Notes: generated from the letters alone by a model not told the origin. A stretch of DNA of 64,000 nt from Candidatus Multivoradales bacterium (GCA_965248925.1 CBDFLE010000006.1:3776001-3840000); one strand, 5' to 3'. Positions 34,824-50,415 are shown, counted from the first letter of the stretch. Translations and numbers: made by a program.

Positions 34824-34900
34824 TGGTAGGCGCTAGCGGACTCGAACCGCTGACCTCTACCGTGTGAAGGTAGCGCTCTAACCAGCTGAGCTAAGCGCCT
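34824..34900 (-). tRNA. tRNA-Val(CAC)
   Basis: AGGCGCTTAGCTCAGCTGGTTAGAGCG-CTACC TT CAC AC GGTAG-AGGTCAGCGGTTCGAGTCCGCTAGCGCCTACCA. Confidence 0.96.
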
Positions 34901-34958
34901 AGGATCTGGATTACTCGACGACTCCACCCGACCGACTGGCTATCGGCCATTCTCGCCT

Positions 34959-35035
34959 TGGTAGGCCCGAGCGGACTCGAACCGCTGACCTCTACGATGT
35001 CAACGTAGCGCTCTAACCAGCTGAGCTACGGGCCT
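34959..35035 (-). tRNA. tRNA-Val(GAC)
   Basis: AGGCCCGTAGCTCAGCTGGTTAGAGCG-CTACG TT GAC AT CGTAG-AGGTCAGCGGTTCGAGTCCGCTCGGGCCTACCA. Confidence 0.96.
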
Positions 35036-35320: not shown

Positions 35321-36817
35321 CAGCCCGTGGCAGAAGTCCGTTTCTACAAAATGTGGCCTAAATTGAGGCCAGCCGGCGCAGGTGGTCTGATCGAAGATCT
35401 TAGTGGCCAATATCCGCTCTCGTGCGGCAGAAGCCAGCTCAGCAAGCTATATACGGCGCGAAAGCCCTGTTCGAGAGCCGAAAGAAAGCCCTGAAGGGCC
35501 CGTGGAGTGCCGGCTCCATACATTTGACGAAGCAGCAGCCCAAGATTGAATCCCGCGATGTGAATCAGCAACCTTTTGCGGATGTTGTCGTGACCTCGAA
35601 GGTGGGTCCTTCTCATACCGCCAGTCTCGTAGCAATGGGCAAAGGTGCGTTCTACTTTCTCTCCTCGACGCCGCGACAGCTCGCGGCCTCGACGACCCTT
35701 GATCCGTCGACGGTTGGCATACACCGCTTGCTTCTCCGCCTCTTTGCCGCACCAGTTGCGTCGGCCTCGATCCGGTTCCGAAATATAGGTTCGAATCTTC
35801 CCTTGACGCTGTGCCTTCATGACCGCGTTACTGTGATAGCCCTTGTCAGCCACCAGCTCTGAACGGACTTTCTCGCTCAAGTGATCGCCAGCCCCCGAAT
35901 CCTCAACGACATCTTCCAGCACCGCAGCGACTTCATCCAACGTCCGCTCTAGGCTCGACGTGTCCCCTCGGTCTGCAGGTTGCACCGTCACCGCCACAAC
36001 CGCACCCGTCTCCATATCCACCGCATGCTCGGCTTTGTGCGCCAGATGCGTCCGCCCATCCTTCATTCGCGTGACTTTGGCGTCGGGATCGTGGGGGTTC
36101 TTCCAGTCGCCGTTCGACGTCTTTTTGTTCTTCCTTTGGCGGTCAAAACGCGCCAGATCCGCTCGCGTCGGGGTCTCCACACCCGAAGCCTCGGCCAGGC
36201 GCGTGAGAAACTCTTCGTTGCTCTCGCCCGAGTCTCGACGCACGATGCTGCGCATCGCCGCGTTCGCCTCGAGGGTCGTCGCATCGATGCCCAGCGTCTT
36301 TCCCCGGAGCAAGCCAGCCTTCGCCAGTACTTGCAAAGCCCAAGCAAACACCGCCTCATGGGTCTCGAGATCGATCAGGCGACGGGTCCGAGAGAGCGTC
36401 GAATGGTCCGGGGTCTGGTCCGAGAGTTCGAAGCCCAGAAAGTCGCGCAGAGTCATCGAATCCGCAAGCCGCCATGCGATACCTCGCTCAGAGTCGATAC
36501 CCTCGAAGAAGCCGATCAACAGCAACCGAAAATACACCGCGGGCGCCAGCGAAGGCCGTCCCATCCTCGTAGCGTAAAACCTCGCGCACTGCTCCTCGAT
36601 AAAGCGATCGAAACCGTGCTTGTCGAGAATCTTGGACAGACGCTCGTAGAAAGGATGTCCTGGGGACTTGGCCAGCGCCTGGGTTTCCACCCAGAGCTGC
36701 CGCTGTCTTCGTTTGCTTCGCCTGCCCATCGCCATGGTCGCTACCTCCCTCGGGTGGAAAGATTCTACCAGGGAAGATCGCCAAGACGGCCGTAATCGGG
36801 ACTTTCACCACGGGCTG
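35321..36817 (-). mobile_element. Complete insertion sequence, IS1182/IS5-like
   Basis: Terminal IRs CAGCCCGTGGCAGAAGTCC and GGACTTTCACCACGGGCTG; CTAG on both flanks (35317-35320, 36818-36821). Confidence 0.9.
35344..36735 (-). CDS. DDE transposase with DUF772-like N-terminus
   Basis: GRPSLAP, TPDHSTLSR, IDATTLEANA, DPDA, VADKGY, VERTFAH. Confidence 0.93.
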   Translation of the reverse strand: MAMGRRSKRRQRQLWVETQALAKSPGHPFYERLSKILDKHGFDRFIEEQCARFYATRMGRPSLAPAVYFRLLLIGFFEGIDSERGIAWRLADSMTLRDFLGFELSDQTPDHSTLSRTRRLIDLETHEAVFAWALQVLAKAGLLRGKTLGIDATTLEANAAMRSIVRRDSGESNEEFLTRLAEASGVETPTRADLARFDRQRKNKKTSNGDWKNPHDPDAKVTRMKDGRTHLAHKAEHAVDMETGAVVAVTVQPADRGDTSSLERTLDEVAAVLEDVVEDSGAGDHLSEKVRSELVADKGYHSNAVMKAQRQGKIRTYISEPDRGRRNWCGKEAEKQAVYANRRRIKGRRGRELSRRRGEKVERTFAHCYETGGMRRTHLRGHDNIRKRLLIHIAGFNLGLLLRQMYGAGTPRALQGFLSALEQGFRAVYSLLSWLLPHESGYWPLRSSIRPPAPAGLNLGHIL

Positions 36818-36858: not shown

Positions 36859-38652
36859 ATGCTAAGCAAATCTTCCCTCAATCCTTCTACCTCCCACTTT
36901 GTTCTAGGCTTCATTCTATTTTGGCTAGTTGGAAGACTTCCTGCAAGTAGCGACGAGTTAATAAGCCCCTATTGGGAGACCGGTCCTGGTTTCTCAACTA
37001 AGGTAGAAGTCACCAACAACGCTGAGTCCCCCCGCTCTTTCACCCTCTCGGCCTCAATCCGTGGGGTTGACGATGTCGTCCTGGCGTCACAAACCATCGC
37101 TTCGCTCAGTACCGTCACCCTCGACCTTGAATCCCTGCTTCAGGGTGAGTTCAGAGGCCGATTGATGTGGGGCTCTGCAGTCCTCTATGGTGCCGACCTT
37201 ACCGGCGTGATCGCCTGGATTGTGTCTGGCGATACCGGTAGATCGGCGCAGAAGGTCAGCACCTTCATCTGGTCTCACCAGACCGCTAAGGGACTCATCA
37301 CACAGTGGCAGCGGCCAGATCCAGACACAAGTCTCAAGATTTTACTCTCCAACCCTGGGCCACAGCCTTCCCGTCCGACGGCGACGATTTGCAATCAGGA
37401 TGGGAGTTGCCAGGAGCAGACCCTGCTCGTGGGGCCCGGCAGTACCAAGCTTCTCCACTACTCGGCGTCACACCTGCGGAGTCTCGGCGACAGCGGCTAC
37501 GTGAGGATCTCGGCCAGCTCCCAGGGGCTCCTCGGTCGCGGTGTTACGTCCTCGCGTTCTAGCTTGAGATCAAGCTCTGTCGAGTTGCAGCCGCTGAATC
37601 TCTATGGCACCAGACTACAATCGACGCCGGTACCGTTCGGGGTGCCTGGCGAAGAGTACGGCTTTCCGGTTCGGGGCTATTATTCCAACAGCTTGTTGAT
37701 TTCGAACGTCTCAGAGAGCCGGCGTGAAGTTGCCATCGTCTCCTATCGGGACGATGGCTCTCGCCGCGAGCACAGTCTCCTCACACTGGGTGGTTTTGAA
37801 ACCAGGCTGATCAAAGATCTGCCCGCCAGGGGGCGGGGAGGTTTTAGGTCGATCGAAATCGTCGACTCCCATTCGACGGGTTCCATCATCGGCCAGGTTG
37901 TAACCTCGATGCGGGGCTCGACGGCGGAGTACAGTTGCCCATTGACCAGCGTAGAGCTGGCAGGCACACATAAGTTCGCGGTGACTTTCGATCTTAAGCC
38001 GGGGAGAACAACGGTCCTGTCCGCCAAGAATGTTGACGACGAAGAGACTACCTTTTCCATCGCTCTTCATTTTGCCACCGAGAGCGGCTCCGGCGTTTGG
38101 ATTTTCCACCCCTTCAAGGCCAACCCACAGGGGCTGATCACGGTAAACCTGAAAGATCTGCGCGACCAACGCACTCTGGGGTATGACGGCAGCCCTTTGC
38201 CGTTAGATCTAGTGCATGGCAGTGCGGTGATCGGCTCTTCGAACTCGCGGATGTTGGCGGCAGATCCGACTTTTGACTTTTCAAGGAATACTGTGGCGCT
38301 CTGCAATCAGCATTGCGGTGAAGGCGATACTGTGGGTGGAGATCACGAGATGATTATCACTCCTTGCGAGCTGCTTTTTGGGCCGCCGCCGCCAGATTCC
38401 GTAACAAACATTACTGACATAGGGGAGGTTTTCTACGAACTTGTCAACAATCAGGAGGTTGCGCCGAATGTTTTTAACTGCACTTATAAGCCGTGCGAGA
38501 CAGGCAAGTGTCGCAGGACTTTTCTTGAACTTGGTACTAGTTTCTGTCCTCCTGGGATTGTGAACTACTGGTTCGAACTGAAGCACTGGTATATTTTCAG
38601 ATACTGTGAGCGAATTATCCATAGGCACATCGGATTTAGGCCCTGCCTGTAG
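36859..38652 (+). CDS. Large secreted hypothetical protein with Cys-rich C-terminal domain
   Basis: 597-aa ORF; hydrophobic N-terminus; beta-rich body; multiple Cys in the last ~115 aa. Confidence 0.75.
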   Translation: MLSKSSLNPSTSHFVLGFILFWLVGRLPASSDELISPYWETGPGFSTKVEVTNNAESPRSFTLSASIRGVDDVVLASQTIASLSTVTLDLESLLQGEFRGRLMWGSAVLYGADLTGVIAWIVSGDTGRSAQKVSTFIWSHQTAKGLITQWQRPDPDTSLKILLSNPGPQPSRPTATICNQDGSCQEQTLLVGPGSTKLLHYSASHLRSLGDSGYVRISASSQGLLGRGVTSSRSSLRSSSVELQPLNLYGTRLQSTPVPFGVPGEEYGFPVRGYYSNSLLISNVSESRREVAIVSYRDDGSRREHSLLTLGGFETRLIKDLPARGRGGFRSIEIVDSHSTGSIIGQVVTSMRGSTAEYSCPLTSVELAGTHKFAVTFDLKPGRTTVLSAKNVDDEETTFSIALHFATESGSGVWIFHPFKANPQGLITVNLKDLRDQRTLGYDGSPLPLDLVHGSAVIGSSNSRMLAADPTFDFSRNTVALCNQHCGEGDTVGGDHEMIITPCELLFGPPPPDSVTNITDIGEVFYELVNNQEVAPNVFNCTYKPCETGKCRRTFLELGTSFCPPGIVNYWFELKHWYIFRYCERIIHRHIGFRPCL

Positions 38653-39524
38653 TGGATAGCGACACGGCCATCCACGTCCTGCGATCAGCAGAGCATCAGC
38701 ACCCGGTCGCTGTCCATCTGGCCTTCGAGGCCGCTCGGTCGCGCCGGCTCCTGGCTGCAAAGCCGGTGATCTTGCGTATGCTACAAGAGCGGATTCGAGA
38801 GGTGCCCGATCTGGTGATGGACTCAAGGGCTCGGGGTTGTGTCGCCTATCTTGGGGCCGTCGGGGACAGCAGCGATAGGAAGCTCCTGGCCGATCTCTCC
38901 GAGAAATATCCGCGGTTTCTGGCGACGATCGGTTTTTCGATGACGGAGGCGGGAACTGAAGAAGCCAGGAGTTTGCTCGTCAATGTCATGCATCGTCCGG
39001 GCGAGGAGCCAGAAAACAAGGCTCGGGCCTCATCTCTCTTGTTGAGTAGGTTTGGCGACCATCAGGGTCTGCGTATGTTCGCGCGGGGGCTGTGTAGTGG
39101 CGAGGTGCCTGAATTCAGGAGGAGTCTCAATGCCTTTAGCCAGGTGCCGAGAACCGCTCAGGGTGAGAAGTACGATGAGATGGTCTGGGCGGCAATCGCT
39201 CAGCAACAGCACCCCGATATGTTGGTGACGGTACTGAATTCCGTTCAGTTCACCCGTCAGCTGAATTCAGAGCGACTGGCGCTACTCGCCGGGCTCTTGC
39301 TGGATAAGCGTCGCGGCAGAGAGTTTTACGGCGGCCGACCATCGAACCGTGGGCGAGTGGCCCGCGTTCAACACTTCGCGGGTCACTATCTGTCCTTGCA
39401 GTTTCAACATCAAGGAAGCCCGGTTGGCGACCCCGACGCCTTTTTCTCGTGGTGGCCCCCCAGACGGCAGAAACACCTCGATCTGGTGACGGGTGAGGTT
39501 GCTGCCCTGCGATCGCAGTCCTGA
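38652..39524 (+). CDS. Hypothetical alpha-helical (HEAT-like) protein
   Basis: 290-aa ORF whose GTG overlaps the upstream TAG; the start is uncertain. Confidence 0.6.
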   Translation: MDSDTAIHVLRSAEHQHPVAVHLAFEAARSRRLLAAKPVILRMLQERIREVPDLVMDSRARGCVAYLGAVGDSSDRKLLADLSEKYPRFLATIGFSMTEAGTEEARSLLVNVMHRPGEEPENKARASSLLLSRFGDHQGLRMFARGLCSGEVPEFRRSLNAFSQVPRTAQGEKYDEMVWAAIAQQQHPDMLVTVLNSVQFTRQLNSERLALLAGLLLDKRRGREFYGGRPSNRGRVARVQHFAGHYLSLQFQHQGSPVGDPDAFFSWWPPRRQKHLDLVTGEVAALRSQS

Positions 39525-39695
39525 ACCTGGCGGTGAGTCTGTTGGCTGCCCTTCTTGGCACCGCCGCCGCGATTTAAGAAGTGGCCGGCCAGCGGCCACG
39601 GCGGGGGATTGCGCCGCGTGTTGACGGCCGTGGCCGGTGGGCGATGAAGTTAAGGGCGGATTCCCTCAACGCGCCCAATCGCAGCTCTGCCGGAG

Positions 39696-39766
39696 AAAAG
39701 CCCGGCCGGTGGTTGCGAGGGGGTGGCGAGCGTCCGAGTGCTCGCTCCGTTAACCACCGACCGGGC
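39696..39766 (-). terminator. Long hairpin with T-tract after the small-gene operon
   Basis: GCCCGGCCGGTGGTT pairs with AACCACCGACCGGGC (14/15); inner GCGAGC/GCTCGC stem; TTTT follows on the minus strand. Confidence 0.6.
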
Positions 39767-39794
39767 TGCCGAACCCACCTGGCAGGAGCCTCAG

Positions 39795-40136
39795 TCAGAA
39801 CCTCAAGGAGCTAGGGGTATCGCCTCCGCGCCTCGCGGCAAGCCAGATCCTGACGGTCCCATTGCCGTAGCTAGCGGCCACCAAATAACTTGAGATCAAT
39901 GCTGCGACAGTGCGATCTTCGAGGGCCAGAATCTCGGCGAATCTGAGTTGCCAACGACCGTTCCAAATCGCCCAGATAGCCAGGGTCAAGACCCTTTCCC
40001 TGGGCGGCGCTTGGTCGATCTCTGAGAGATGCTCGTAGGCAGTATTCTTGGGTCCATTCGCCCCCCACAGCTCGGCGCGGCCCATTCGATCGAGCAGCAG
40101 GCGGCAGACGGCCAGGCGCAGCTTTGGATCAACCAA
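39795..40136 (-). CDS. Small hypothetical protein
   Basis: TTG start overlapping the upstream stop; AVCRLLL...LWGANGP...ERVLTLAIWAIWNG. Confidence 0.6.
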   Translation of the reverse strand: MVDPKLRLAVCRLLLDRMGRAELWGANGPKNTAYEHLSEIDQAPPRERVLTLAIWAIWNGRWQLRFAEILALEDRTVAALISSYLVAASYGNGTVRIWLAARRGGDTPSSLRF

Positions 40137-40590
40137 ATCGAAACCCCCGAAGATTCGGTAGCGGACAGGGGCACATCGAGCGCACGGACCGTGCCGGGTG
40201 CTCAATGGGTCGAATTACAACGTCGAGCGCCTGCCAGTGCGCGTCAACCGTCTTGGAGAGCCCGGCTAGTGCCCTTAGCTCAAGCCATGACGGTTGCTCT
40301 GCGCCGCCAATCCACAGCACCACCGCGGCGGGGTCGTAGGGCTGCCCGGCGAGCAGCAGCTCGGTCACATCGAGCGCCGCCAAGCCAGCGGATGCTAGGC
40401 AATGAGCCACCGGAATGTGCTGGGCGTCGAGCAGCAACACGCCGCCGGGCTCGGATCTACTGAGCAGTAAGTTCAGAACCAACGCCGCCTCAGCGACCGA
40501 CGCTAGCCCCTGGCAGGTCCACATCTCCCCCAGCTCGACCTGGACGACCTTTGCCTTCGGGTGCTGCCCGATCAAGGCTTGAGTGCTCAC
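40129..40590 (-). CDS. Small hypothetical protein
   Basis: GTG start in a GTGA overlap with the upstream gene stop (MSTQALIG...). Confidence 0.55.
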   Translation of the reverse strand: MSTQALIGQHPKAKVVQVELGEMWTCQGLASVAEAALVLNLLLSRSEPGGVLLLDAQHIPVAHCLASAGLAALDVTELLLAGQPYDPAAVVLWIGGAEQPSWLELRALAGLSKTVDAHWQALDVVIRPIEHPARSVRSMCPCPLPNLRGFRFG

Positions 40591-41120
40591 CTCTGCCCAC
40601 CCGGACCCCGTGAGATCTGGACCAGCTCGTTGCCGGCTTGTCGTAAGAACCCCAGAGCTGGCGCGAACTGCCTGCAAGGCGGCGAGATGGCAATATCTCT
40701 CTGCGCCAGGGTCGAGTGGCGCAGGGCGGCCAGAGCACCAATTCGGACCTCGCCGGCAGCCACCACCGCGCTATCGATCTGTTGCTCTACAGCGCCGCGC
40801 CAGCTAGCTAGCTGGTGGTCGGCGGCGGCCGCGTCCTCTGCGGTCCACAGTTCACCGGGCGGTGCCTGGCCGAGGAGCAGAAGGGTATCAAGAGTGGCTC
40901 GAAGATCGGCCACCAACGAGCCATAGCCGCCCAGTGGGAAGACCTCAACCGGCGCTCTATCTGCCGGGTCGTCGGGTCGCGCTCCGGGGGGCCTCGGGGC
41001 CAGCGGCACCAACACCCAGGGCAGCACCATCGCACGCTCGGCGGCGACGATCAAAGCTGCTGCTTCGAGGCAGCCTCGGCGCAACTGCTGCGGCGCGACT
41101 GGATAGAGCAGTGTGCTCAC
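40587..41120 (-). CDS. Small hypothetical protein
   Basis: GGGAG RBS before GTG; 177 aa; coupled to the downstream ORF. Confidence 0.6.
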   Translation of the reverse strand: MSTLLYPVAPQQLRRGCLEAAALIVAAERAMVLPWVLVPLAPRPPGARPDDPADRAPVEVFPLGGYGSLVADLRATLDTLLLLGQAPPGELWTAEDAAAADHQLASWRGAVEQQIDSAVVAAGEVRIGALAALRHSTLAQRDIAISPPCRQFAPALGFLRQAGNELVQISRGPGGQR

Positions 41121-41193
41121 GAGTTTGGCTCCCTATTGGCGGCGCTGCAGGTTCGCTGGCTGGCGACTAACTCGGCATCTACAGCGGGCCGGA

Positions 41194-41607
41194 TCACTGC
41201 ACCGTCCTCAGTCGCTGGCCGCTGGATCTCACCAGCAGGGCGATGCGGGCTCGCTGATCGGCGCCGCGCCGCTCCAGCCAGCTCTCGATCAGCTCCTCCT
41301 CCGAGATCTCGGCCGCGTCACTCAGCAGGCCGATCGTGGTGCCGACCTGCTCCGTTGCCAGCTCCGTGGCACCGAGCATTGCTTCCAAGATCGTTGGCGG
41401 TTGAAGCTCGGCGCTCGCCAACTCCCGCTTGGCAAAGCCGCCACGATGGGTCGGCACGGTGGGCGGATCGGGGAGCATAGCCAGCAGGTCAGCCAGCTTG
41501 TCCTCCAAGCGCCGCAACTCGGCGCCGGTCTCTAGCATCACCGCCCGCGCCTGGGATTCGATTTGCTCGGGCGAAGCAACTTTCGCAACTGGTTGTGGGT
41601 CGCTCAT
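41194..41607 (-). CDS. Small helical hypothetical protein divergent from the HTH-TPR gene (intact copy)
   Basis: MSDPQPVAKVASPEQIESQARAVMLETGAELRRLEDKLADLLAMLP...; its 5' part is duplicated at 45605-45712. Confidence 0.7.
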   Translation of the reverse strand: MSDPQPVAKVASPEQIESQARAVMLETGAELRRLEDKLADLLAMLPDPPTVPTHRGGFAKRELASAELQPPTILEAMLGATELATEQVGTTIGLLSDAAEISEEELIESWLERRGADQRARIALLVRSSGQRLRTVQ

Positions 41608-43278
41608 GGGCTGCACTGTAGGCACAGACCGGGCCTGGCAGGGCAACGAATCTCAGCGCGACAATCTATCAACCCTCGGCCAATTCCGATTCCAATGACC
41701 TGAGAACCGGGATCCATTAGCCTCGCCGCCGGCTACCTCGGGCAGCGAGTGCTCAGGCGCAATACCGAGGGTATAGGGTAAGCTCGCTGGAGCTATAGAC
41801 TATGGATAGTTAAGAGGGACCAGGGATGAACAGTGAGACTGCGCGAGCAGACCAGGCGCTTGCGTCAGCAGTTGCGCCGATACTTTGACCTGCACCGTGG
41901 CCGGCAGAGTTCCGTCGACCGCGAAAGCGGCCACTCTCCAGGTTGGAATCGGACGATATTCGGGCGCGGGCTCCGCCGGCTCACCGGTTGCCAGATCATC
42001 TCCAGTGCTCAGGGCATGGGCCTCGATCTCGGTGAGCTGGTGGCCGAGACCACCGCGCCTGGCTCGGCCAAGTTGCTGCGCAGGGTCCGCGAAGGCACCC
42101 ACGGCCAGCGGGAATACACCCTCGCCAGGCGGTCCACGGTCAAGGTCGAGACCAAGACCGCAGAGACGGAGTCCGCCCCGGCCAAAGCCGAGCCTGTCGT
42201 GGTCGAAGCCAAGGCCGAGACCCAGGCCGAGGCTGAGGTCAAGAAAGTCCTGCTCAAGACGCCACCGACCGCCATCCTCAACCTCGAATCAGCCGCTAGG
42301 CAGGTGGCCTGCCGACGCCTCGAACAAAGCGAACTCTCGCCGCCGCCCGCGCCCACCGCCGAGGAAGCCTTCAGCTGTTTGCTCGATGCGCCGCTGAATC
42401 ACCGCCGGCAGGTGCTCCGTCAAGAACCCCGCTGGCGTAGCCTGGCTGGGGTCAAGCATGCTGCTTTGGCGATCGACAAGCTTCGGCTTTGCGCCCCCAA
42501 GGAAGCCAGGGCGCTGGCGCAGATCCTGGCGATCGAGATCGCCGCCAAGATCAAAGGCGCAGATTGCGCCGAGGCGTTCTGCCGGGCAGCTGGGGTGCTG
42601 GGTTCGAGCCACAGAATCGGCGCCTCCATGGAAGGCGCCGCCTTCTGCCTAGAGACAGCCCTAGTGATCGCCTGCTGGGCACCGCCAGGGGTGCGGGCGG
42701 ATCTACTGCAAAGGGCGAGCTTCGTTCTGTCGAATCACGGCGCCATCGAGGCCGCTCTGGCAGTCTCCGGCAAGGCAATGGCCATCTATGCTGAGCAGCG
42801 GGACAGTGCTGGCATGGGCAAGGTCTTCGTCGATCAAGCAACCTTCTTGGCCTATTCAGGTCAGTACGAAGAGGCGCGTGGATCGTGGCTGAATGCTCTG
42901 GCTCTGCTACCCGATACCGAGAAACATCACCGCGCAGCGGTCTATCAAGGATTGGCCCACCTCGATGAGCAAGCTGGCCGGCTCGATACCGCCATTGAGC
43001 ACTTGCGGCTAGCTCAGGAATTCATCCCTCAGCGCGCGACCTACCTTCGAGGCAAGGTGTCTTGGGCGGCGGGTGAGATAGCAAGAAAGCAAGGGCGATT
43101 CGGTGCTGCGGAGAGCCAGCTTCGGCAGGCGGTCGCAGAGCTGGGAATGATCAACCCGTTTGATCTCGGCTTGGTGACTCTCGATCTTGCTGAGTTGCTC
43201 TTGGAGACCGGCCAGGCCGCCGAGGCAGTGGAGCTGGCCAAGGACACGGAAGCCCTGCTCAAGCTGTTCAAGAGCAAC
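41500..43278. repeat. Imperfect direct repeat, copy 1 (~1.78 kb)
   Basis: Aligns by eye with 45605-47377 from GTCCTCCA to AGAGCAAC. Confidence 0.95.
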
Positions 43279-43305
43279 CCGAGCAGAGTAAAAACGACAG
43301 AATGA
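41826..43305 (+). pseudogene. HTH-like/TPR protein, copy 1: +1 insertion near the start and 3' truncated
   Basis: GAGACT-G-CGCGAG versus GAGACTCGCGAG in copy 2 puts ATG 41826 out of frame (GTG 41833 could rescue it). Homology ends at ...FKSN (43278) and the C-terminal ~45 aa are missing. Confidence 0.75.
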
Positions 43306-43453
43306 ACTGCTGGTAAGGTGCGTGGCACCCCATTTGGTGTATGTCGGGTGCGTTTGCTGGACAAGTAGAGGGCCGGGCGAAGCGTCGAATTCGAACGACC
43401 CCACCCGGCCCATCTAGAGCGCGTTGCTCTCTCAGTCTGTAATTACGTGTGCC

Positions 43454-44084
43454 TCAGCATGGACACGCGATCTGAACCATTTGGGTGATCTCCCCTGAAG
43501 ACATCGCGCTCGGCGTGCTTGGGAATTCTCCGAGTCCGCTAGAGTGAAGCGCTTCGTGGATCAGAGGTATGGCGCGCGAATAAGGGAGCGGGAAGAACAG
43601 TCCTGAGCAAAGGTAAACCGTAAACGATCCCCGATAGGTGAAAGCCAGGGCTGTGCTGTCGCAGGCGACGTTCACGCCGTCACCTGGCTTGTACCTGGTA
43701 AGTTCGATGGTCGTAATCCCGTCACCGCTAATCCCGTTGCTTGGCCAAAGGTTGGCGCAGGATGTTTGCAGAAGCTTGAAGAAGGCGTTGGCTCGGGCTT
43801 GGTCGAGTTTTATCTGCTGGTAGTTGGTGAAACCGTTCTCGTTAAAGGGGGCTGTCATCGCCACCACCGCCACTACCACCACCGCCACTGCCGCCACCAC
43901 CGCTACACGAGTACCCCCAATCGCCGAGCGGGCAGGTCAAGGTGCCGGTGGCTGAGGAACTATCCCATTCCCACGTACAGTCGTCCAAGTCGACGTTAAG
44001 TGGCACCCACCCACAGTCACCATGCGCCGAGGTGGACATCAGGGCGACCAGAACAGAGCACAACAAGGCGGCTCGCGCGCTCAT
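43454..44084 (-). CDS. Secreted HEXXH zinc-metallopeptidase-like protein split by a +1 frameshift at ~43845
   Basis: ATG 44084 overlaps the upstream TGA. Signal peptide, Cys/Trp domain and Gly linker end at CCC CTT TAA; the +1 frame continues FNENGF...IHEALHSSGLGE...C. Confidence 0.7.
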
Positions 44085-45133
44085 CTTGCCACCACATTCC
44101 GGGGGTGCTCGACCAGGACCGAATGCGCGGTTCCGGCCGGGCCTGTGAGATAGAGCCAAAGACGGAAATTCCTGTCGGTGTAGTCTAGGCGGTCTGCGGT
44201 AAACGCCTGTCTATCATCGTTGTTCGAGACCATCAAGGGCAGGCTAATCGATCGCCAGATCTCCCCATGGTCGCCCAGCGGTAGCAGAGCATAGGGATAA
44301 TTGTCGAGTGGAATCACGGCCGATCCCTGTGGATACAGCTCGACATCCCATTCACCGATAAGGGGTTGGCCAAATAAGCTGCCGGGAGGGTTTGAGCCCC
44401 AGAGGCGGGCGCCTGCTCGCGGCTCCGGCGGGGCCTGATGGCTCCAAGTGCCGAGGACCTTTCCCCCGATGGTGCTGAGTCGTTTCTCTGTCCAGTGAAA
44501 AGCCTCGACGATATCGGTGGGATCGGATGGGTAGATGTATTCAAGGATCAGTTCGAGACCGATATGAATCTTGAGTGGGCGGCCTTCCACATCCCACTCA
44601 ACGCCTGCCAGCGGCCCGTTCACATCTTTTGCCCAGAGGAGCCCATGACGGTTGCGGCTCTGGTGGCGCTCGCCACCGAGTGAATCCTTGATGATCACCA
44701 CTCTTTCTTTGGAGCGCTGGGGGAACCGTACCCCGACTCTCTTGGTGACGGTGAGCTGTTGGCCGAGCGACTCAGCCTGAGTTTCAAAGATCGCTTGCTC
44801 CGGGAGCACTGTTCCGGGCTCGAACGCGTCAGTAGGAGGTAGGACGCTTCGGTACAGCCTCCAGTAGTAGGCGGATTGGGTGGTCGTCTCCCATTTGCCA
44901 TCGGCCGCTTTCGTGTCGAAAGCCGAGGCGGCGGCGCTGTGACCGCGCTGCCAGGCTTGGAGCCAGTTGAGGATCTCAGCTTGTCGTTCGTCGGGTAGGC
45001 CAGTGGTGGTCAAGAGGCGTTGGCCGTCGTCGCCAGTGTGGGAGGTCAGCCACGTCGGATCAGGGTCTGACGACAGGGCGGGGGCTGTTGGCCACAGCAG
45101 AGCGGCGACCAGCAGGACAGGGGCAATACGCAT
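44081..45133 (-). CDS. Secreted hypothetical protein
   Basis: AAGGAG RBS; signal peptide MRIAPVLLVAALLWPTAPALS; 350 aa. Confidence 0.75.
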   Translation of the reverse strand: MRIAPVLLVAALLWPTAPALSSDPDPTWLTSHTGDDGQRLLTTTGLPDERQAEILNWLQAWQRGHSAAASAFDTKAADGKWETTTQSAYYWRLYRSVLPPTDAFEPGTVLPEQAIFETQAESLGQQLTVTKRVGVRFPQRSKERVVIIKDSLGGERHQSRNRHGLLWAKDVNGPLAGVEWDVEGRPLKIHIGLELILEYIYPSDPTDIVEAFHWTEKRLSTIGGKVLGTWSHQAPPEPRAGARLWGSNPPGSLFGQPLIGEWDVELYPQGSAVIPLDNYPYALLPLGDHGEIWRSISLPLMVSNNDDRQAFTADRLDYTDRNFRLWLYLTGPAGTAHSVLVEHPRNVVAR

Positions 45134-45202
45134 GCAAGACTCCTTTCTCATCCTCTCTCTAGTTGTTCTGAATTCAACACATTCACTCCAATCTACAAGA
45201 AG

Positions 45203-45570
45203 GTAAGCGTCCCAGCAACCCCACCTTCCCCTCGCGCTTCTGAGCAGCCAAGATCAGCCGTAGGAGGTGACCTATGGTTGAAAGCACGAATCGGTCGCGC
45301 TCTCGCCGGAGCAGGGCGTCTTGGCAAAGAACGATTGAACCGTGGAAGAGCAGCGGCCTGTCCCAGGTGAAATTCTGCGAGCAGAACGACCTGGCGTTGG
45401 CGATTTGCGGGTGGTGGTACAGACCTCTGAAACGTGACGCTGTGGCCAAGACCGCACCCTAGCCGTCTGACGCGAACGAGCTTCTGCCTCTGGTACCAGC
45501 GGCTGGAGAGAGGGCGCTTCCGCCTGCCTGAGACAAATGAACCGAGCGTCGAGATGGAGGCTGCGGAGTC
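45203..45570 (+). mobile_element. IS66-family remnant (left end, tnpA fragment, tnpB fragment)
   Basis: GTAAGCGTCCCAGCAACCCC terminus; AGGAGGT RBS plus WQRTIEPWKSSGLSQVKFCEQNDL (TnpA-like); FCLWYQRLERGRFRLP...SVEMEAAE (TnpB-like); no tnpC. Confidence 0.8.
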
Positions 45571-45604
45571 GGGAGAGCCGGGTGCCATACGCTTCTGCCG
45601 AGTC

Positions 45605-45712
45605 GTCCTCCAGGCGCCGCAACTCGGCGCCGGTCTCCAGCATCATCGCCCGCGCCTGGGATTCGATTTGCTCTGGCGAAGCAACTTTCGGCTCTGGTTG
45701 TGGGTCGCTCAT
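45605..45712 (-). pseudogene. Truncated copy of the small divergent gene
   Basis: MSDPQPEPKVASPEQIESQARAMMLETGAELRRLED, after which homology stops next to the IS66 remnant. Confidence 0.8.
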
Positions 45713-47377
45713 GGGCTGCACTGTAGGCACGGTCCGGGACTGGCAGGGCAGCGAATCTCAGCGCGACCATCTATCACTCCTCGGCCAATTCCGATTCCAA
45801 TGACCTGAGAACCGGGATCTATCAACCTCGCCGCCAGCCGCCTCGGGCAGCGAGTGCCCAGGAGCAATGCCGAGGGTATGGGATAAGCTCACTGGAGCTA
45901 TAGACTATGAATAGTTCAAGAGGGGCCAGGGATGAACAGTGAGACTCGCGAGCAGACCAGGCGCTTGCGTCAGCAGTTGCGCCGATACTTTGACCTGCAC
46001 CGTGGCCGGCAGAGTTCCGTCGACCGCGAGAGCGGCCACTCTCCAGGTTGGAATCGGACAATATTCAGGCGCGGGACGCGCAGACTCACCGGCTACCAGA
46101 TCATCTCCAGTGCTCAGGGCATGGGCCTAGATCTCGGTCAGCTGGTAGCCGAGACCACCGCGCCTGGCCCGGCCGAGTTGCTGCGCAGGGTCCGCGAGGG
46201 CACCCACGGCCAGCGGGAATACACCCTGACCAGGCGGTCCACGGTCAAGGCCAAGACCGCAGAGACGGAGTCCGCCCAGGCCAAAGCCGACCCCGTCGTG
46301 GTCGAAGCCAAGGCCGAGACCCAGGCCGAGGCTGAGGTCAAGAAAGTCCTGCTCAAGACTCCACCGACTGCCATCCTCAACCTCGAATCCGCCGCTAGGC
46401 AGGTGTCCTGCCGACGCCTCGAGCAAAGCGAACCCTCGCCGCCGCCCGCGCCCACCGCCGAGGAAGCCCTCAGCTGTTTGCTCGATGCGCCGCTCAATCA
46501 CCGCCGGCAGGTGCTCCGTCAAGAACCGCGCTGGCGTAGCCTGGCGGGAGTTAGGCATGCTGCTCTGGCGATCGACAAGCTACGGCTTCGCGCCCCCAAG
46601 GAAGCCAGGGTGCTGGCGCAGATCCTGGCGGTCGAGATCGCCGCCAAGATCAAAGGCTCAGACTGTGCCGAGGCGTTCTGCCGGGCAGCTGGGGTGCTGG
46701 GTTCGAGCCACAGAATCGGCGCCTCGATGGAAGGCGCCGCCTTCTGCCTGGAGACCGCCCTGGTGATCGCCTGCTGGGCACCCCCAGGGGTGCGAGCGGA
46801 TCTACTGCAGAGGGCGAGCTTCGTTCTGTCGGGTCACGGCGCCATCGAAGCCGCCCTGGCAGTCTCCACCAAGGCCATGGCCATTTACGCCGAGCAGCGG
46901 GACAATGCTGGCATGGGCAAGGTCTTCGTGGACCAAGCAACTTTCTTGAACTACACCGGCCAGCCGGAGAAAGCGCGGCGCTCATCGCTATACGCCCTGG
47001 CGCTGCTACCCGACACTGAGCAGCACCAGCGTGCAGCGATCTATCAGGGTTTGGCCCATCTTGATGAACAGGCTGAGCGGCTCGACAGTGCAGCGGAGCA
47101 TTTGCAGCTAGCCCAGGCGTTCATTCCTCGGCGGGCAACGTATCTGCGAGGAATGGTGTGTTGGTCGGCGGGTGAGATCGCCAGAAAGCAAGGGCAGCTC
47201 AGTCTGGCAGAGCGCCATCTGCGGCAGGCGGTGGAGAAGCTAGCCAAGATCAACCCCTTCGACCTAGCGCTGGCAACTCTTGATCTTGCTGAGTTGCTCT
47301 TGGAGACCGGCCAGGCCGCCGAGGCGGTGGAGCTGGCCAAGGATACGGAAGCCCTGCTCAAGCTGTTTAAGAGCAAC
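45605..47377. repeat. Imperfect direct repeat, copy 2
   Basis: Aligns with 41500-43278. Confidence 0.95.
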
Positions 47378-47515
47378 GAGATCGCTCACGCTGCGGTAAG
47401 GCAGCTCGCCAGCGTGGCCCGGCGCGGAGAGTTCGATCTGGCGGTTGTCAAGGTGGCCAGGGAGGTGATCAAGGGCGAGCGGCATCGCGGTATCCGCCCG
47501 CCCAATTGGCGCTAG
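45932..47515 (+). CDS. HTH-like/TPR protein, copy 2 (full length)
   Basis: TAGACT -10 at 45901; N-terminal QSSVDRESGHSPGW...QIISSAQGMGL (XRE-HTH-like), A/E/K linker, then TPR-like repeats. Confidence 0.8.
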   Translation: MNSETREQTRRLRQQLRRYFDLHRGRQSSVDRESGHSPGWNRTIFRRGTRRLTGYQIISSAQGMGLDLGQLVAETTAPGPAELLRRVREGTHGQREYTLTRRSTVKAKTAETESAQAKADPVVVEAKAETQAEAEVKKVLLKTPPTAILNLESAARQVSCRRLEQSEPSPPPAPTAEEALSCLLDAPLNHRRQVLRQEPRWRSLAGVRHAALAIDKLRLRAPKEARVLAQILAVEIAAKIKGSDCAEAFCRAAGVLGSSHRIGASMEGAAFCLETALVIACWAPPGVRADLLQRASFVLSGHGAIEAALAVSTKAMAIYAEQRDNAGMGKVFVDQATFLNYTGQPEKARRSSLYALALLPDTEQHQRAAIYQGLAHLDEQAERLDSAAEHLQLAQAFIPRRATYLRGMVCWSAGEIARKQGQLSLAERHLRQAVEKLAKINPFDLALATLDLAELLLETGQAAEAVELAKDTEALLKLFKSNEIAHAAVRQLASVARRGEFDLAVVKVAREVIKGERHRGIRPPNWR

Positions 47516-48255
47516 GCTGGGCTACCGTTTGGTTCGATCATTGGACCGAACCCGGCCTGGTCGCCTTGGTGCCCGATGATCGGGCCAACTCGCCCGCGCC
47601 TTCTTTTCTGCTTGCTCATTTGAAACTCCCCGACACGCCGCCGCCTTGGCCGAGCTGAATTGCTCGGGCAAGGAGAGCGTGTCCGTTGGGAGTCTAGCTA
47701 TCGACCGGCAACGGCTGCGCTGGCAGTTTTCGAAGCGGTGGGCAGACGGGAGTGGCGATCCGAGTTAGTGCCCGAGCTGGTGCCGGTCACTTCTGCCGGC
47801 GATAGGTCTCTCGGCCGAGGTACGGAGCTAGATCTGCTTCTGGGTACTTCGACGAAGTACGTTCAAGGACTCGGGGGGCAGCAAGGAGCCAGAAAGAAGA
47901 GACTTAGAACGGCCACGACGGTGAAGAGAAGAGTGGCGATGAAGAAGGACGATGAGAAGCTTGGGTGACTCCGAGAGTGTCTTGGAGCTTGGACTCCGTG
48001 TGCCAGATGGGAGCGCCCTCTTTGGGTCTCTAGACGCAAAGATCACAGTATACCGGCCTCTGATCAGGCCTCAAAGAGTGTGAATAGAAGCTCGTCCGAT
48101 CAGACCCAGTCACCAGCGAGAAATCATCGACCAGAATCCACCATTCTGCTTGACTTGAACCGTCCGACTCATAGAAGACATTGCGAATCAAGAATCTTGG
48201 TCTTTGTTCAGTAGATCGAAGATCGTATCTCGGATCCGGACAACCAGTGCCACAT

Positions 48256-50415
48256 CTACTGTGTTGGATGCAGGAGTTGGGTCCGAAAAAGTGCAACCGA
48301 GCGAATTAGTGTGGCGGTAGTGTTGTCGCTGACCTCCACCCGCAAGCTGTAGTCGCCGGTCGGTAAGGTGCCGAGTTCTAGCTCGAGATGAAACTTGTCG
48401 ATCCCGTCAATGGCTGTCGCCGTTCGTTCAATCAATTCCAGACGCGGCTGGTCGACGATTTTGCCGGAGCTGTCGAGCACCTGCCCGGTGAAAATCAGTG
48501 GGCCCGCGGCGAGTTCGTAACCGATCAGGTAGAGGGCCGTCGGGCCCGAATTCAATCGCGGCCGGGCCGCCGGTACGAAGAGCTTTCCGGCGAAAGTGAA
48601 GGGGTAGACCACCTGGTCGGTGCCAGTACCCGCGGCGTTTTCGCGCACCAACATCCAACTATCCAAGGGCTCGGGGAAGAGGGGCGGCAAGATTCTCACT
48701 GTACCGTCGGTGAAATCAGGCACCACGAGGCTTAGGCTGCGGGCGCCGGCGCGGCCGGTTTCGGCATTGCGCACCAAGGTTCGCAGCAAGTAGTTGCCCG
48801 CTCCCAACTCGAGGTGGCCATAGAATTTGAGACCTTTGCCGAGATGCTCGCGGGCGTTCTCGAGCGCGATTTTCACCACCTGGCTGAACAGATCGCGCAG
48901 GGTGCCATCGGAGTCGGTGACGTAGACATAGATTTCAATCGCCAGAAGCTCACCACCGTGGTCTCGCAGCAGGTCTTCCCCGTCGGCTTCGATAATTACC
49001 GGCACATAGGCAATATTCGAGCCGGTTCTGAAGGGTGTTGCTAGCAAGTCGAGGGTGATTTCCCGGCGCGGCTCGGCGCTGGCGATGACCTCGGCGGCGA
49101 GCAAGCTTTTTTCCAGAGGATGCAACTCGGCGAAGGGCTGGGGCCCGTAGTAGCCGGCGCGATGCGAGATGCGACCCTTGTGGCCTGCCACTTTGACTTG
49201 CAGCCGGTGGTAACTACCGTCCTTGGGCAGGTCGTCAGCGCGGAAGGTCAACAGGTAGGTCAGCCGCGAGCGGTTGAGTGCCCGTTCGAGCTGCGGGCCG
49301 AGTTGGTTGGTGTCTTCGAAAAGCTCGCCACCGGTGCCGTGGGCAATGTAGAAAAGAGCGTCTTGACCGGTTCTGTCGATGCGCGTGGCGGCGGCCGAAC
49401 CCGCTTTCAGACCGCCGATGTCGATCGCTTGCAGCACGCAGTCGGCACGGCGTAGCTGTTCGAGCATGCTCTCGATGTCGTTCTTCAGTGTGCCGTTGCC
49501 GTAGATGTCGTCGTTGTCCACCAACCCGTGCAGGCCGCGATGGGTGAGTTCTTTGTCCAGTTCTACTTGTGGATCTTGGGCGTCGGCTTCGCGGCCGAGA
49601 AGCAAGCGACCGTCAAAACCTTCTGAGAAGTAGAGAATATGTTTGCGCCCCTCGACGCTTGCGAGAATCCGCGCCATCTTGCCGAGGGCGCTGGCCCAGC
49701 CCGAGATACGAGCGCGCTCGAATGCCTTGTCACTCTGCCGTAGTTGTTTGCTGATGAGCAACGAATCGGTAAATTCTTCGCTGCTGCTCAGCGTCGAATC
49801 TCCGCGGTTCCCGGCCATCAGCGGGGTGATGTTAGACGGTTCTTCGATCAGGAAGTGTAGGGGATCGCGGGCCCGCGCTAGCTGCCTGGGTGCACCCAGG
49901 TTATCGATGGCGCGAACCAGTTGGACGCGGTCGAGGCTGAAGGTCACCAACAACTCGAGGCCTCGCTTACGGCTGTAGACGGCCACCGCCGCCAGGTCGG
50001 TGGGATGTAGCGAGGACAGGGCGAGTTCTCTTGCCGCCTGCCGCGCTCGAGCTATCGCTTGTGGGCTTGAGAAAGCGAGATCGAAGAGCAGCAGGAAATG
50101 GCGCCTACTGGCAGCCGGCAAACGCCGCGCGGCACGGCGGGCGGCAAACGGGTCGGCAGGGTCGAGGGTGGCGAGATCGATGACTTCAACGCTTTCTATC
50201 GGTCTCGGGAGGCCGTCGTCGAGGAGCTCGAAGTGCTCGATTCCAAGCCCGCCGATCGGCTGGCCGCGCTGGTCGACTACATTCACCGGCACCTCGACGG
50301 AAATCACCTCAGTCTTGCCCGCAAAAGTCTGCTCTGCTTGCTTAGCCGCCACCGTCTGGACGCTGGCCAGACTTGCCAGAAAGGCCAACAGGGCAACAGC
50401 GTGCGGGCTTGTCAC
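48256..50415 (-). CDS. VWA domain-containing secreted protein (acidobacterial VWFA-related type)
   Basis: VEVPVNVVDQRGQPIGGL...F.LLDDG, LLLFDL, GRKHILYFSEGF, TGG, YHRLQVKV...HRAGY. Confidence 0.85.
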   Translation of the reverse strand: MTSPHAVALLAFLASLASVQTVAAKQAEQTFAGKTEVISVEVPVNVVDQRGQPIGGLGIEHFELLDDGLPRPIESVEVIDLATLDPADPFAARRAARRLPAASRRHFLLLFDLAFSSPQAIARARQAARELALSSLHPTDLAAVAVYSRKRGLELLVTFSLDRVQLVRAIDNLGAPRQLARARDPLHFLIEEPSNITPLMAGNRGDSTLSSSEEFTDSLLISKQLRQSDKAFERARISGWASALGKMARILASVEGRKHILYFSEGFDGRLLLGREADAQDPQVELDKELTHRGLHGLVDNDDIYGNGTLKNDIESMLEQLRRADCVLQAIDIGGLKAGSAAATRIDRTGQDALFYIAHGTGGELFEDTNQLGPQLERALNRSRLTYLLTFRADDLPKDGSYHRLQVKVAGHKGRISHRAGYYGPQPFAELHPLEKSLLAAEVIASAEPRREITLDLLATPFRTGSNIAYVPVIIEADGEDLLRDHGGELLAIEIYVYVTDSDGTLRDLFSQVVKIALENAREHLGKGLKFYGHLELGAGNYLLRTLVRNAETGRAGARSLSLVVPDFTDGTVRILPPLFPEPLDSWMLVRENAAGTGTDQVVYPFTFAGKLFVPAARPRLNSGPTALYLIGYELAAGPLIFTGQVLDSSGKIVDQPRLELIERTATAIDGIDKFHLELELGTLPTGDYSLRVEVSDNTTATLIRSVALFRTQLLHPTQ

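Follow-up and report, generated by a model that had tools for sequence, protein, structure and literature searches.

The DNA analysed here, hereafter the window, is a stretch of 64,000 nucleotides from a Candidatus Multivoradales bacterium (GCA_965248925.1 CBDFLE010000006.1:3776001-3840000), with positions counted from its first letter. It belongs to a contig of 5.2 Mb in a genome of 8.0 Mb and six contigs, which we labelled G000, and a neighbouring gene matches TIGR03436, which suggests that the lineage belongs to the Acidobacteriota. Our subject is a regulator gene present in two copies, whose product joins a putative helix-turn-helix (HTH) domain to a tetratricopeptide repeat (TPR) domain, together with a run of four small genes on the opposite strand, s1 to s4. 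A reading made earlier from the sequence alone (the sequence-only reading) had picked out a 527-aa open reading frame (ORF) at 45932-47515 and four minus-strand ORFs from 41607 to 39795, and these are present as described. From left to right, the features of the locus are:

39699-39767, minus strand: hairpin at the end of the operon, with a 16-bp outer stem and an inner stem-loop, followed by UUUUCU; likely terminator of s1-s4
39795-40136, minus strand: s4, about 113 aa, helical, without known family; TTG start at 40136
40129-40590, minus strand: s3, 153 aa, GTG start at 40590; possibly a degenerate RadC/JAB-like protein, on weak similarity
40587-41120, minus strand: s2, 177 aa, an orphan helical domain
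41194-41607, minus strand: s1, 137 aa, helical, first gene of the operon; ATG at 41607
41500-43278, no strand: repeat unit, copy A, defined by self-BLAST
41608-41832, no strand: divergent spacer A, 225 nt, presumed to hold promoters and operator; contains the block RTAGGKTAAG
41833-43305, plus strand: regulator copy A, 490 aa, with HTH, linker and TPR parts; C-terminus cut and start shifted
45605-45730, minus strand: s1 remnant, the first ~36-42 codons, continuing as the ORF 45272-45730
45605-47377, no strand: repeat unit, copy B, defined by self-BLAST
45731-45931, no strand: divergent spacer B, 201 nt
45932-47515, plus strand: regulator copy B, 527 aa, intact; domains at residues 1-92, 101-139 and 146-515 in an AlphaFold2 model

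Within the operon, s1 and s2 are separated by 73 nt without overlap, while the last three genes do overlap, as the sequence-only reading had it. The s2/s3 overlap is 4 nt long (GTGA) and the s3/s4 overlap 8 nt, reading TTGGTTGA in the window and ATGGTTGA at the same position of a paralogous locus, L002 (C6:2640001-2657000), where an ATG stands exactly where s4 of the window has its TTG start. Both loci retain s3 and s4 as two overlapping genes; in the paralog on contig C3 (L001:7001-7795), an 11-nt insertion joins the two frames into a single 264-aa ORF. The long hairpin that had been seen after the operon was also borne out, with a folding z-score of -4.3 and none of 200 shuffled sequences folding as well. 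A simple terminator scan, which does not allow for so long a loop, left it out. Regarding selection, the ratio of nonsynonymous to synonymous substitution rates (dN/dS) against the C3 paralogs lies between 0.24 and 0.37 for s1-s4 overall (s1, 0.31-0.37; s2, 0.27-0.33; s3, 0.37; s4, 0.24), leaving out the s4 pair of window and L002, whose numbers were inconsistent. Because of these ratios, all four small ORFs look like real genes.

When the whole window was compared with itself by BLAST, positions 41500-43278 and 45605-47377 matched with 89.35% identity over 1784 nt and 11 gaps, the second and last repeat pair being two tRNA-Val genes. The repeat takes in about 36 codons of s1, the spacer and the first 482 residues of the regulator, and its boundaries are sharp on both sides (on the left at about 41497/45602, on the right after regulator codon 482). 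The sequence-only reading held that regulator, spacer and first gene all occur twice; this is right for the spacer and for the regulator as far as residue 482, whereas the s1 'duplicate' is a mere stub, because the left boundary falls some 36 codons into that gene. The ORF 45272-45730 that begins with this stub matches s1 at its N-terminus (85% over 53 aa) and continues in unrelated sequence, as a chimeric remnant. The spacer had been described as conserved and about 220 bp long: its two copies are indeed ~90% identical, and they measure 225 and 201 nt. In copy A, the regulator reaches a stop 8 codons past the right repeat boundary and therefore comes without the ~45 C-terminal residues that are conserved family-wide; besides, a 1-nt insertion directly after the conserved ATG (41826) puts that codon out of frame, so we took GTG 41833, the remaining start, as the beginning of the gene. 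Each copy thus keeps one half: copy B has the whole regulator and has lost the facing operon, and copy A has the intact operon s1-s4 beside a cut regulator. As a check on the assembly, we compared the window with contigs from four sequencing runs of one sample, from which the assembly was probably made; they show 0 differences, and a single 2527-nt short-read contig (43197-45723) spans both inner repeat boundaries.

To place the locus in its genome, we searched G000 with tblastn and obtained 34 regulator loci, of which 33 are distinct, since one is an assembly-overlap copy on contig C1; 26 are ORFs of at least 400 aa. At 25 of the 34, the 3 kb upstream of the regulator contain small genes of shared families on the other strand, so the head-to-head linkage claimed for the window recurs across its paralogs. 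Clustering of the neighbours gave three layouts, each with the regulator head-to-head to small genes:

Type I: s1, sometimes F16, s2, and s3/s4; found in the window, C3, L002 and L003
Type II: two Pterin_4a (DCoH/PCD-like) proteins and F4, a protein of 139-155 aa
Type III: F36 (the first gene), a 330-aa protein in which an s2 domain is fused to a DCoH-like domain, and a JAB protein of the RadC-like kind

The partners come from a common pool, made up of s1-like proteins, F16, the s2 domain, DCoH/PCD-like proteins, RadC/JAB-like proteins or the degenerate s3, s4, and F4. Judged from the sequences, the three types are tied together by gene fusions, namely that of s2 with the DCoH-like domain in the 330-aa type III proteins and that of s3 with s4. 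Paralogs of s1 adjoin type I regulators in C3, in L002 (two copies) and in L003 (C6:611001-631000; two s1-like ORFs). The Pterin_4a-like proteins of the type II and III modules match their family at E 8.2e-11 to 1.4e-4, and no Pterin_4a (PF01329) domain occurs among s1-s4 of the window. The DCoH/PCD-like profile gave 46 six-frame matches in G000 and between 0 and 6 in each of 40 related genomes. By eye, these copies have no His-His-Pro stretch, which we take to be the motif of the DCoH/PCD enzyme. We also compared s1 with the first gene of the type III modules, F36, and homology was unsupported (hhalign probability 0.5%).

The damage at the locus raises the question of whether it still does anything. 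The two copies could be decaying remnants of an integrated mobile element, left by a cassette that travelled with plasmids, transposons and insertion sequences and now without any regulation of consequence, and the locus would then be an ordinary by-product of a genome rich in insertion sequences (IS). The shifted start and missing C-terminus of copy A, and the replacement of the copy B operon after ~36 codons of s1, are what such decay would leave. Other type I copies fare no better, the L002 regulator being cut to 183 aa and two more being split by IS elements, by an IS3-type insertion in L003 and by an insertion coding for a 797-aa transposase. Moreover, the module lies in a lower-GC part of the window (0.55-0.61 at 35-40 kb, vs 0.60-0.67 at 24-35 kb) with an IS5-type transposase, and the window no longer contains any integrase or transfer gene. 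Yet copies A and B differ with a dN/dS of 0.19 at a synonymous divergence (dS) of 0.34, which shows that the duplication is old and that both copies have been under purifying selection for most of that time. The four small ORFs are likewise intact, at the low dN/dS given above, and the two copies taken together still provide a complete regulator and a complete operon. Hence, we hold decay of the locus as a whole to be unlikely.

The synonymous divergence between the copies (41833-43278 vs 45947-47377) is uneven: it is 0.18 for the N-terminal domain, falls to 0.06 for the linker and reaches 0.45 for the TPR part. Since it is lower in the 5' part, it hints at a partial gene conversion that may have affected this part and the spacer.

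The AlphaFold2 model of regulator copy B, computed from a 33-row alignment, has a mean predicted local distance difference test score (pLDDT) of 89.4 and a predicted template modelling score (pTM) of 0.87. It places helices within residues 2-92 (at 24-33, 40-46, 54-63 and 68-74), a disordered linker rich in Lys, Ala and Glu at 101-139, and an all-helical TPR superhelix at 146-515. The Pfam search returned TPR models only, all below their gathering cut-offs. When the model was compared with known structures, VIA-align gave Z-scores of 19 to 25 to many TPR proteins, Foldseek likewise returned many long TPR proteins, and a search of BFVD gave generic TPR proteins only.

The N-terminal domain could be assigned through its relatives. 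A profile of the type I N-termini matches those of the other 20 family members with an hhalign probability of 97% (E 1.1e-10, 77 columns), and the profile of these 20 matches structures of XRE-type HTH proteins, among them C.BclI (1.6e-5), an XRE regulator, ClgR and DdrOC. A mixed 24-row N-terminal profile gave the same picture, with C.BclI at 1.6e-5 to 2.4e-5 across profiles and C.AhdI also matched. Besides, three of the 33 family members reach the Pfam models HTH_31 or HTH_3 singly, two of them above gathering cut-offs. We read the domain, by transitive homology, as a divergent HTH of the XRE/Cro-C1 type. Sequence profiles and model together support a sensor-type protein made of HTH, linker and TPR parts, which is the architecture that the sequence-only reading had proposed.

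That reading had gone on to suggest an RRNPP-like switch. If the regulator were a true RRNPP quorum-sensing receptor, its TPR part would bind a short peptide that is encoded adjacent to it, secreted and re-imported. The combination of HTH and TPR fits, and Rap proteins (phi3T, Z 21.7; RapF, 21.6; pLS20, 19.2) and NprR (21.0) are among the top VIA-align rows. However, APPBP2 (25.4), subunits of the APC (22), LGN (20.6) and MalT domain III (20.1) score as high or higher, so the match is a generic one that singles out no particular family: the fold search confirmed the TPR superhelix and lent nothing to a specific likeness to RRNPP receptors. There is no conserved small ORF downstream of the regulator (a 50-aa ORF at 47506-47658 has no counterpart at the other copies) and no secretion-type peptide gene adjacent to it; s1-s4, at 113-177 aa, show no signal peptide by eye. 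The regulator has no match to the RRNPP models of Pfam and NCBIfam, nor any in PADLOC, PHROG or NCBIfam as a whole, and the lineage appears to be acidobacterial. RRNPP membership thus found no support in our analysis, and we give it very little credence.

The partner proteins are harder to place. None of s1-s4 matches a Pfam, NCBIfam, PADLOC or PHROG entry, and none has a recognisable toxin fold or catalytic motif. For s2, AlphaFold2 produced a model of five helices at low confidence (pLDDT 64.5), for which Foldseek gave no fold match at E<=0.001. Its profile found four matches at E<=1e-10 among 1.84 billion cluster representatives; at least two of these four, P0008 and P0009, come from elsewhere, the latter being another fusion of s2 with DCoH. 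With the same profile, no match was obtained in the 23 other genomes of the same taxonomic family, nor in 400 other genomes of the phylum with five candidates scored per genome. For s3/s4 we found two outside relatives, both on contigs of ~1 kb. Comparisons of s2 (best score 0.75) and s3 (0.84) with the ESM Atlas led to no named family.

In the case of s3, there is a lead towards RadC. When richer profiles were used, s3 aligned with the RadC domains of this genome over 84 columns, in register with the JAB motif, at an hhalign probability of 29% (E 5.9e-4); with a thin profile the probability was 1.3%. The gene also occupies the position that RadC has in the type III modules. In the alignment, the HxH motif of RadC/JAB proteins is replaced in s3 by W-I and a gap. 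The Pfam RadC model (PF04002) does not match s3, the window being absent from its 11 six-frame matches in the genome, and the s3 profile has no match among PDB sequences. By these alignments s3 may be an inactive or degenerate RadC relative, which we put forward as a lead, not a finding.

These proteins bear on a further explanation, namely that the module belongs to the conflict systems (toxin-antitoxin-like, anti-phage defence or anti-defence), with one of the small proteins as effector and the HTH-TPR protein as sensor or antitoxin-type repressor. XRE-HTH repressors that face small operons are common in such systems. The family is also multi-copy and built combinatorially, and Rhs polymorphic toxins, IS elements and a plasmid are found in its vicinity. 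In the type III modules the RadC/JAB domain looks intact (PF04002, E 3.9e-32), and the protein that carries it gave a weak PADLOC match to JAB (E 0.0044), the sole exception among the module proteins. Zhang et al. 2012 (PMC3482391) relate a proposal by which JAB domains of the RadC clade function as nucleases. Nevertheless, neither the regulator nor s1-s4 has a PADLOC or PHROG match, so the defence role raised by the sequence-only reading gained nothing; s3 of the window, even supposing that it is a JAB domain, is without HxH, and, as said above, the small proteins carry no recognisable sign of a toxin or an enzyme. We regard a conflict module as rather improbable.

The mobile-element setting that had been claimed for this kind of module was found at its paralogs. 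The ends of contig C1 (L057:1-18744) overlap by 10.8 kb at 99.9% identity, hence we treat it as a circle of ~18.7 kb, a mobilisable plasmid. On it are genes for ParA and for a MobA/VirD2 relaxase, the latter interrupted by an IS3-type element, and its regulator is divergent from F16 and an s3-like gene that run into the relaxase gene, with the module just upstream of it. On C3, a complete type I module stands beside a resolvase, a Tn3 transposase and DnaB. The mobile-element flavour of the module family is real. A second association concerns Rhs genes. The genome has 35 Rhs-like intervals, many in arrays with a spacing of ~12-23 kb; at 9 of the 34 regulator loci an Rhs gene follows 113-820 nt downstream on the same strand, and nine further loci are within 8.6 kb of an Rhs interval. 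The arrays are found on contigs C4 (155-285 kb) and C5 (0-65 kb) and at other sites, with ORFs of 1576-2474 aa that match RHS_repeat.

As for the window itself, housekeeping genes flank the module region on both sides. Two tRNA-Val genes (cac and gac, 89% identical over 80 nt) within 34824-35035 stand at the left edge, together with the IS5-type transposase, and the GC content falls to 0.55-0.59 between 35 and 39 kb. The IS5-type transposase (DUF772 and DDE_Tnp_1) is encoded at 35344-36735, and the same transposase is found beside other modules in the genome. Directly beyond the operon hairpin lie two back-to-back plus-strand ORFs, 36859-38652 (597 aa) and 38652-39524 (290 aa), which match nothing in Pfam, NCBIfam, PADLOC or PHROG and have no paralog in G000. 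The interval between the regulator copies contains two minus-strand ORFs: the first, of 148 aa (43454-43900), is hydrophobic at its N-terminus, contains a HEALH motif and weakly matches Aspzincin_M35 (E 0.0049), and the second, of 356 aa (44081-45151), has a signal-like N-terminus. A diverged version of this gene pair is present at C6:2383145-2384490. Rfam gave no match in 39300-48300.

Outside G000, 22 of 23 genomes from the same taxonomic family contain the TPR part of the regulator family, each with 2-20 matches, which fits an expansion of the kind that the sequence-only reading had suggested. G000 itself gave 36 matches, and 34 of the 41 genomes searched, G000 included, were positive. The nearest G000 relatives of the matches in kin genomes are mostly copies without a partner operon. 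In G017, a genome of a related genus, two loci (L054, G017:C832; L055, G017:C60) present a co-directional operon of the regulator, another gene, a Pterin_4a-like gene and two others; the HTH-TPR homolog comes first, the Pterin_4a-like gene is in the middle, and none of the remaining four products has a Pfam family. By match positions, G004 has a regulator homolog with a DCoH-like match about 1.9 kb away on the same strand. Thus, the link between regulator and DCoH reaches beyond G000, in another layout. A word-index search with the regulator gave one outside protein at 57% identity (P0002, on a 3978-nt contig) and three distant ones; metagenome scans with the s2 and type I regulator profiles confirmed no relative, and copy B, used as a tblastn query, matched none of 72,556 plasmids and 50,697 phage records. 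Because s2 has so few matches among the cluster representatives, the type I variant of the window is nearly unique.

According to these results, we lean, with moderate confidence, towards a one-component transcriptional switch of the mobile-element type, restricted to this lineage and equipped with orphan partner proteins. The 527-aa protein would bind the ~200-nt divergent spacer through its HTH domain and so govern the facing s1-s2-s3-s4 operon as well as its own promoter, in a direction that we infer from the layout. The TPR superhelix would be the sensor half, in which the binding of a partner alters DNA binding. Most likely its ligand is a protein or peptide partner, perhaps one that the operon itself encodes, and not a small pheromone that the cell secretes; we prefer an intracellular protein because no peptide gene is adjacent and the partner genes co-vary with the type of regulator. 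As the two spacers are ~90% identical, copy B could plausibly act in trans on the spacer of copy A and probably serves the operon beside the cut regulator.

Several observations weigh against such a switch. The regulator of the window matches no Pfam HTH model, and when a profile built solely from the six type I N-termini was searched against PDB sequences, annexin VI (E 0.009-0.037) was the only match and no HTH structure appeared. The assignment to the XRE/Cro-C1 class is therefore indirect, by transitive homology and by a model that was searched as a whole. A scan for sigma-70 promoters returned 0 promoter-like sites, with 1.1 expected, spacer A having no match to the sigma-70 consensus, and the spacers share no convincing conserved inverted repeat, operator or clear palindrome. 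The block RTAGGKTAAG, common to the type I spacers, is non-specific, with 26 sites in the genome vs about 77 expected. Many copies of the family are broken, and with copy A cut, the L002 regulator reduced and two type I copies split by IS elements, part of the family may be decaying. Finally, the nearest Rhs interval is 117-121 kb away from the window copies, for which reason the link to Rhs genes does not apply to the window.

The divergence of the N-terminus from every HTH model and structure, when type I is taken alone, would also suit a protein that does not bind DNA and instead serves the small proteins as a TPR scaffold or chaperone, its N-terminal domain being a degenerate helical bundle. 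Against this, the same N-terminus is clearly homologous to members that do match XRE HTH models and structures, and the head-to-head gene layout is conserved, which makes a scaffold highly improbable in our view.

A bolder version of the transcriptional switch extends it to the whole family. HTH-TPR cassettes would be a self-spreading, previously undescribed class of regulatory modules, in which small DCoH-like proteins without enzyme activity, s2-domain proteins and RadC-like proteins, dead or live, serve as co-factors or signals for a TPR-sensing repressor that gates genes whose expression is costly or dangerous, namely Rhs toxins, plasmid mobilisation and transposon cargo. We consider this extension doubtful. 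If true, the pair in the window would be a split version, with the intact copy B controlling the operon beside copy A, and the family would offer a new control of Rhs toxins as well as a bacterial counterpart of the co-activator role of DCoH in animals, where the protein doubles as enzyme and transcription co-factor.

Among known systems, the RRNPP receptors (PlcR, NprR, PrgX, Rgg and AimR, with Rap lacking the HTH) share with the window regulator an N-terminal XRE-type HTH and a C-terminal TPR-type sensor in one polypeptide. They are often found on mobile elements, and PrgX can be divergent from the operon that it controls. The window regulator differs in having no adjacent propeptide gene and no sequence match to them, in its disordered, charged linker of ~40 residues, in belonging to a lineage outside the Firmicutes, and in a fold match that is no better than to unrelated TPR proteins. 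The C proteins and small XRE regulators (C.BclI, 2b5a; C.AhdI, 1y7y; ClgR; DdrOC) are the best profile matches of the family's N-terminal domain; they are 66-130 aa long and have no sensor domain, and the subfamily of the window does not match them directly. The WhiJ/BldB-type loci of Streptomyces bear a likeness too, as many-copy XRE-HTH regulators with small partners of unclear function, whereas the partners described here have no Pfam match of the DUF397/BldB-like or anti-sigma-like ATPase kind and the C-terminal domain is a different one. DCoH/PCD (PF01329) and the RadC JAB domain (PF04002) are found in paralogous modules at the positions of s2 and s3; the module of the window, however, has no DCoH-like gene, and its s3 is at best an inactive relative of RadC.

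We found no description of this module in PADLOC, PHROGs, NCBIfam, Rfam or the literature searched (main texts, and PMC3482391 as far as the part at hand goes). The regulator belongs to a known kind, that of XRE-HTH proteins with a TPR domain. By its sequence features, the cassette differs in its set of partners (the orphans s1, s2, s4 and F16, a DCoH-like protein that does not look enzymatic, and RadC-like proteins live or dead), in its combinatorial variants, in its 33 loci and in its position before Rhs genes. The regulation of mobile elements and of large Rhs arsenals in Acidobacteriota is little known. A working switch would give a handle on when Rhs toxins and elements turn on, and three or four orphan domains (s1, s2, s4 and F16) would join the list of regulator partners.

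The closest working analogy, as it seems to us, is the control of transfer genes on Gram-positive plasmids of the pLS20 type. The pLS20 conjugation switch (PMC3814332) consists of RcoLS20, an Xre-type repressor, RapLS20, a TPR anti-repressor, and the peptide Phr*. There, an Xre-type repressor and a TPR sensor gate a transfer operon, much as the C1 member of our family is divergent from an operon that runs into a relaxase gene, which by this analogy it would regulate. In pLS20, HTH and TPR are separate proteins and the signal is a peptide that is secreted, whereas here no peptide gene is seen and the two parts are joined in a single protein.

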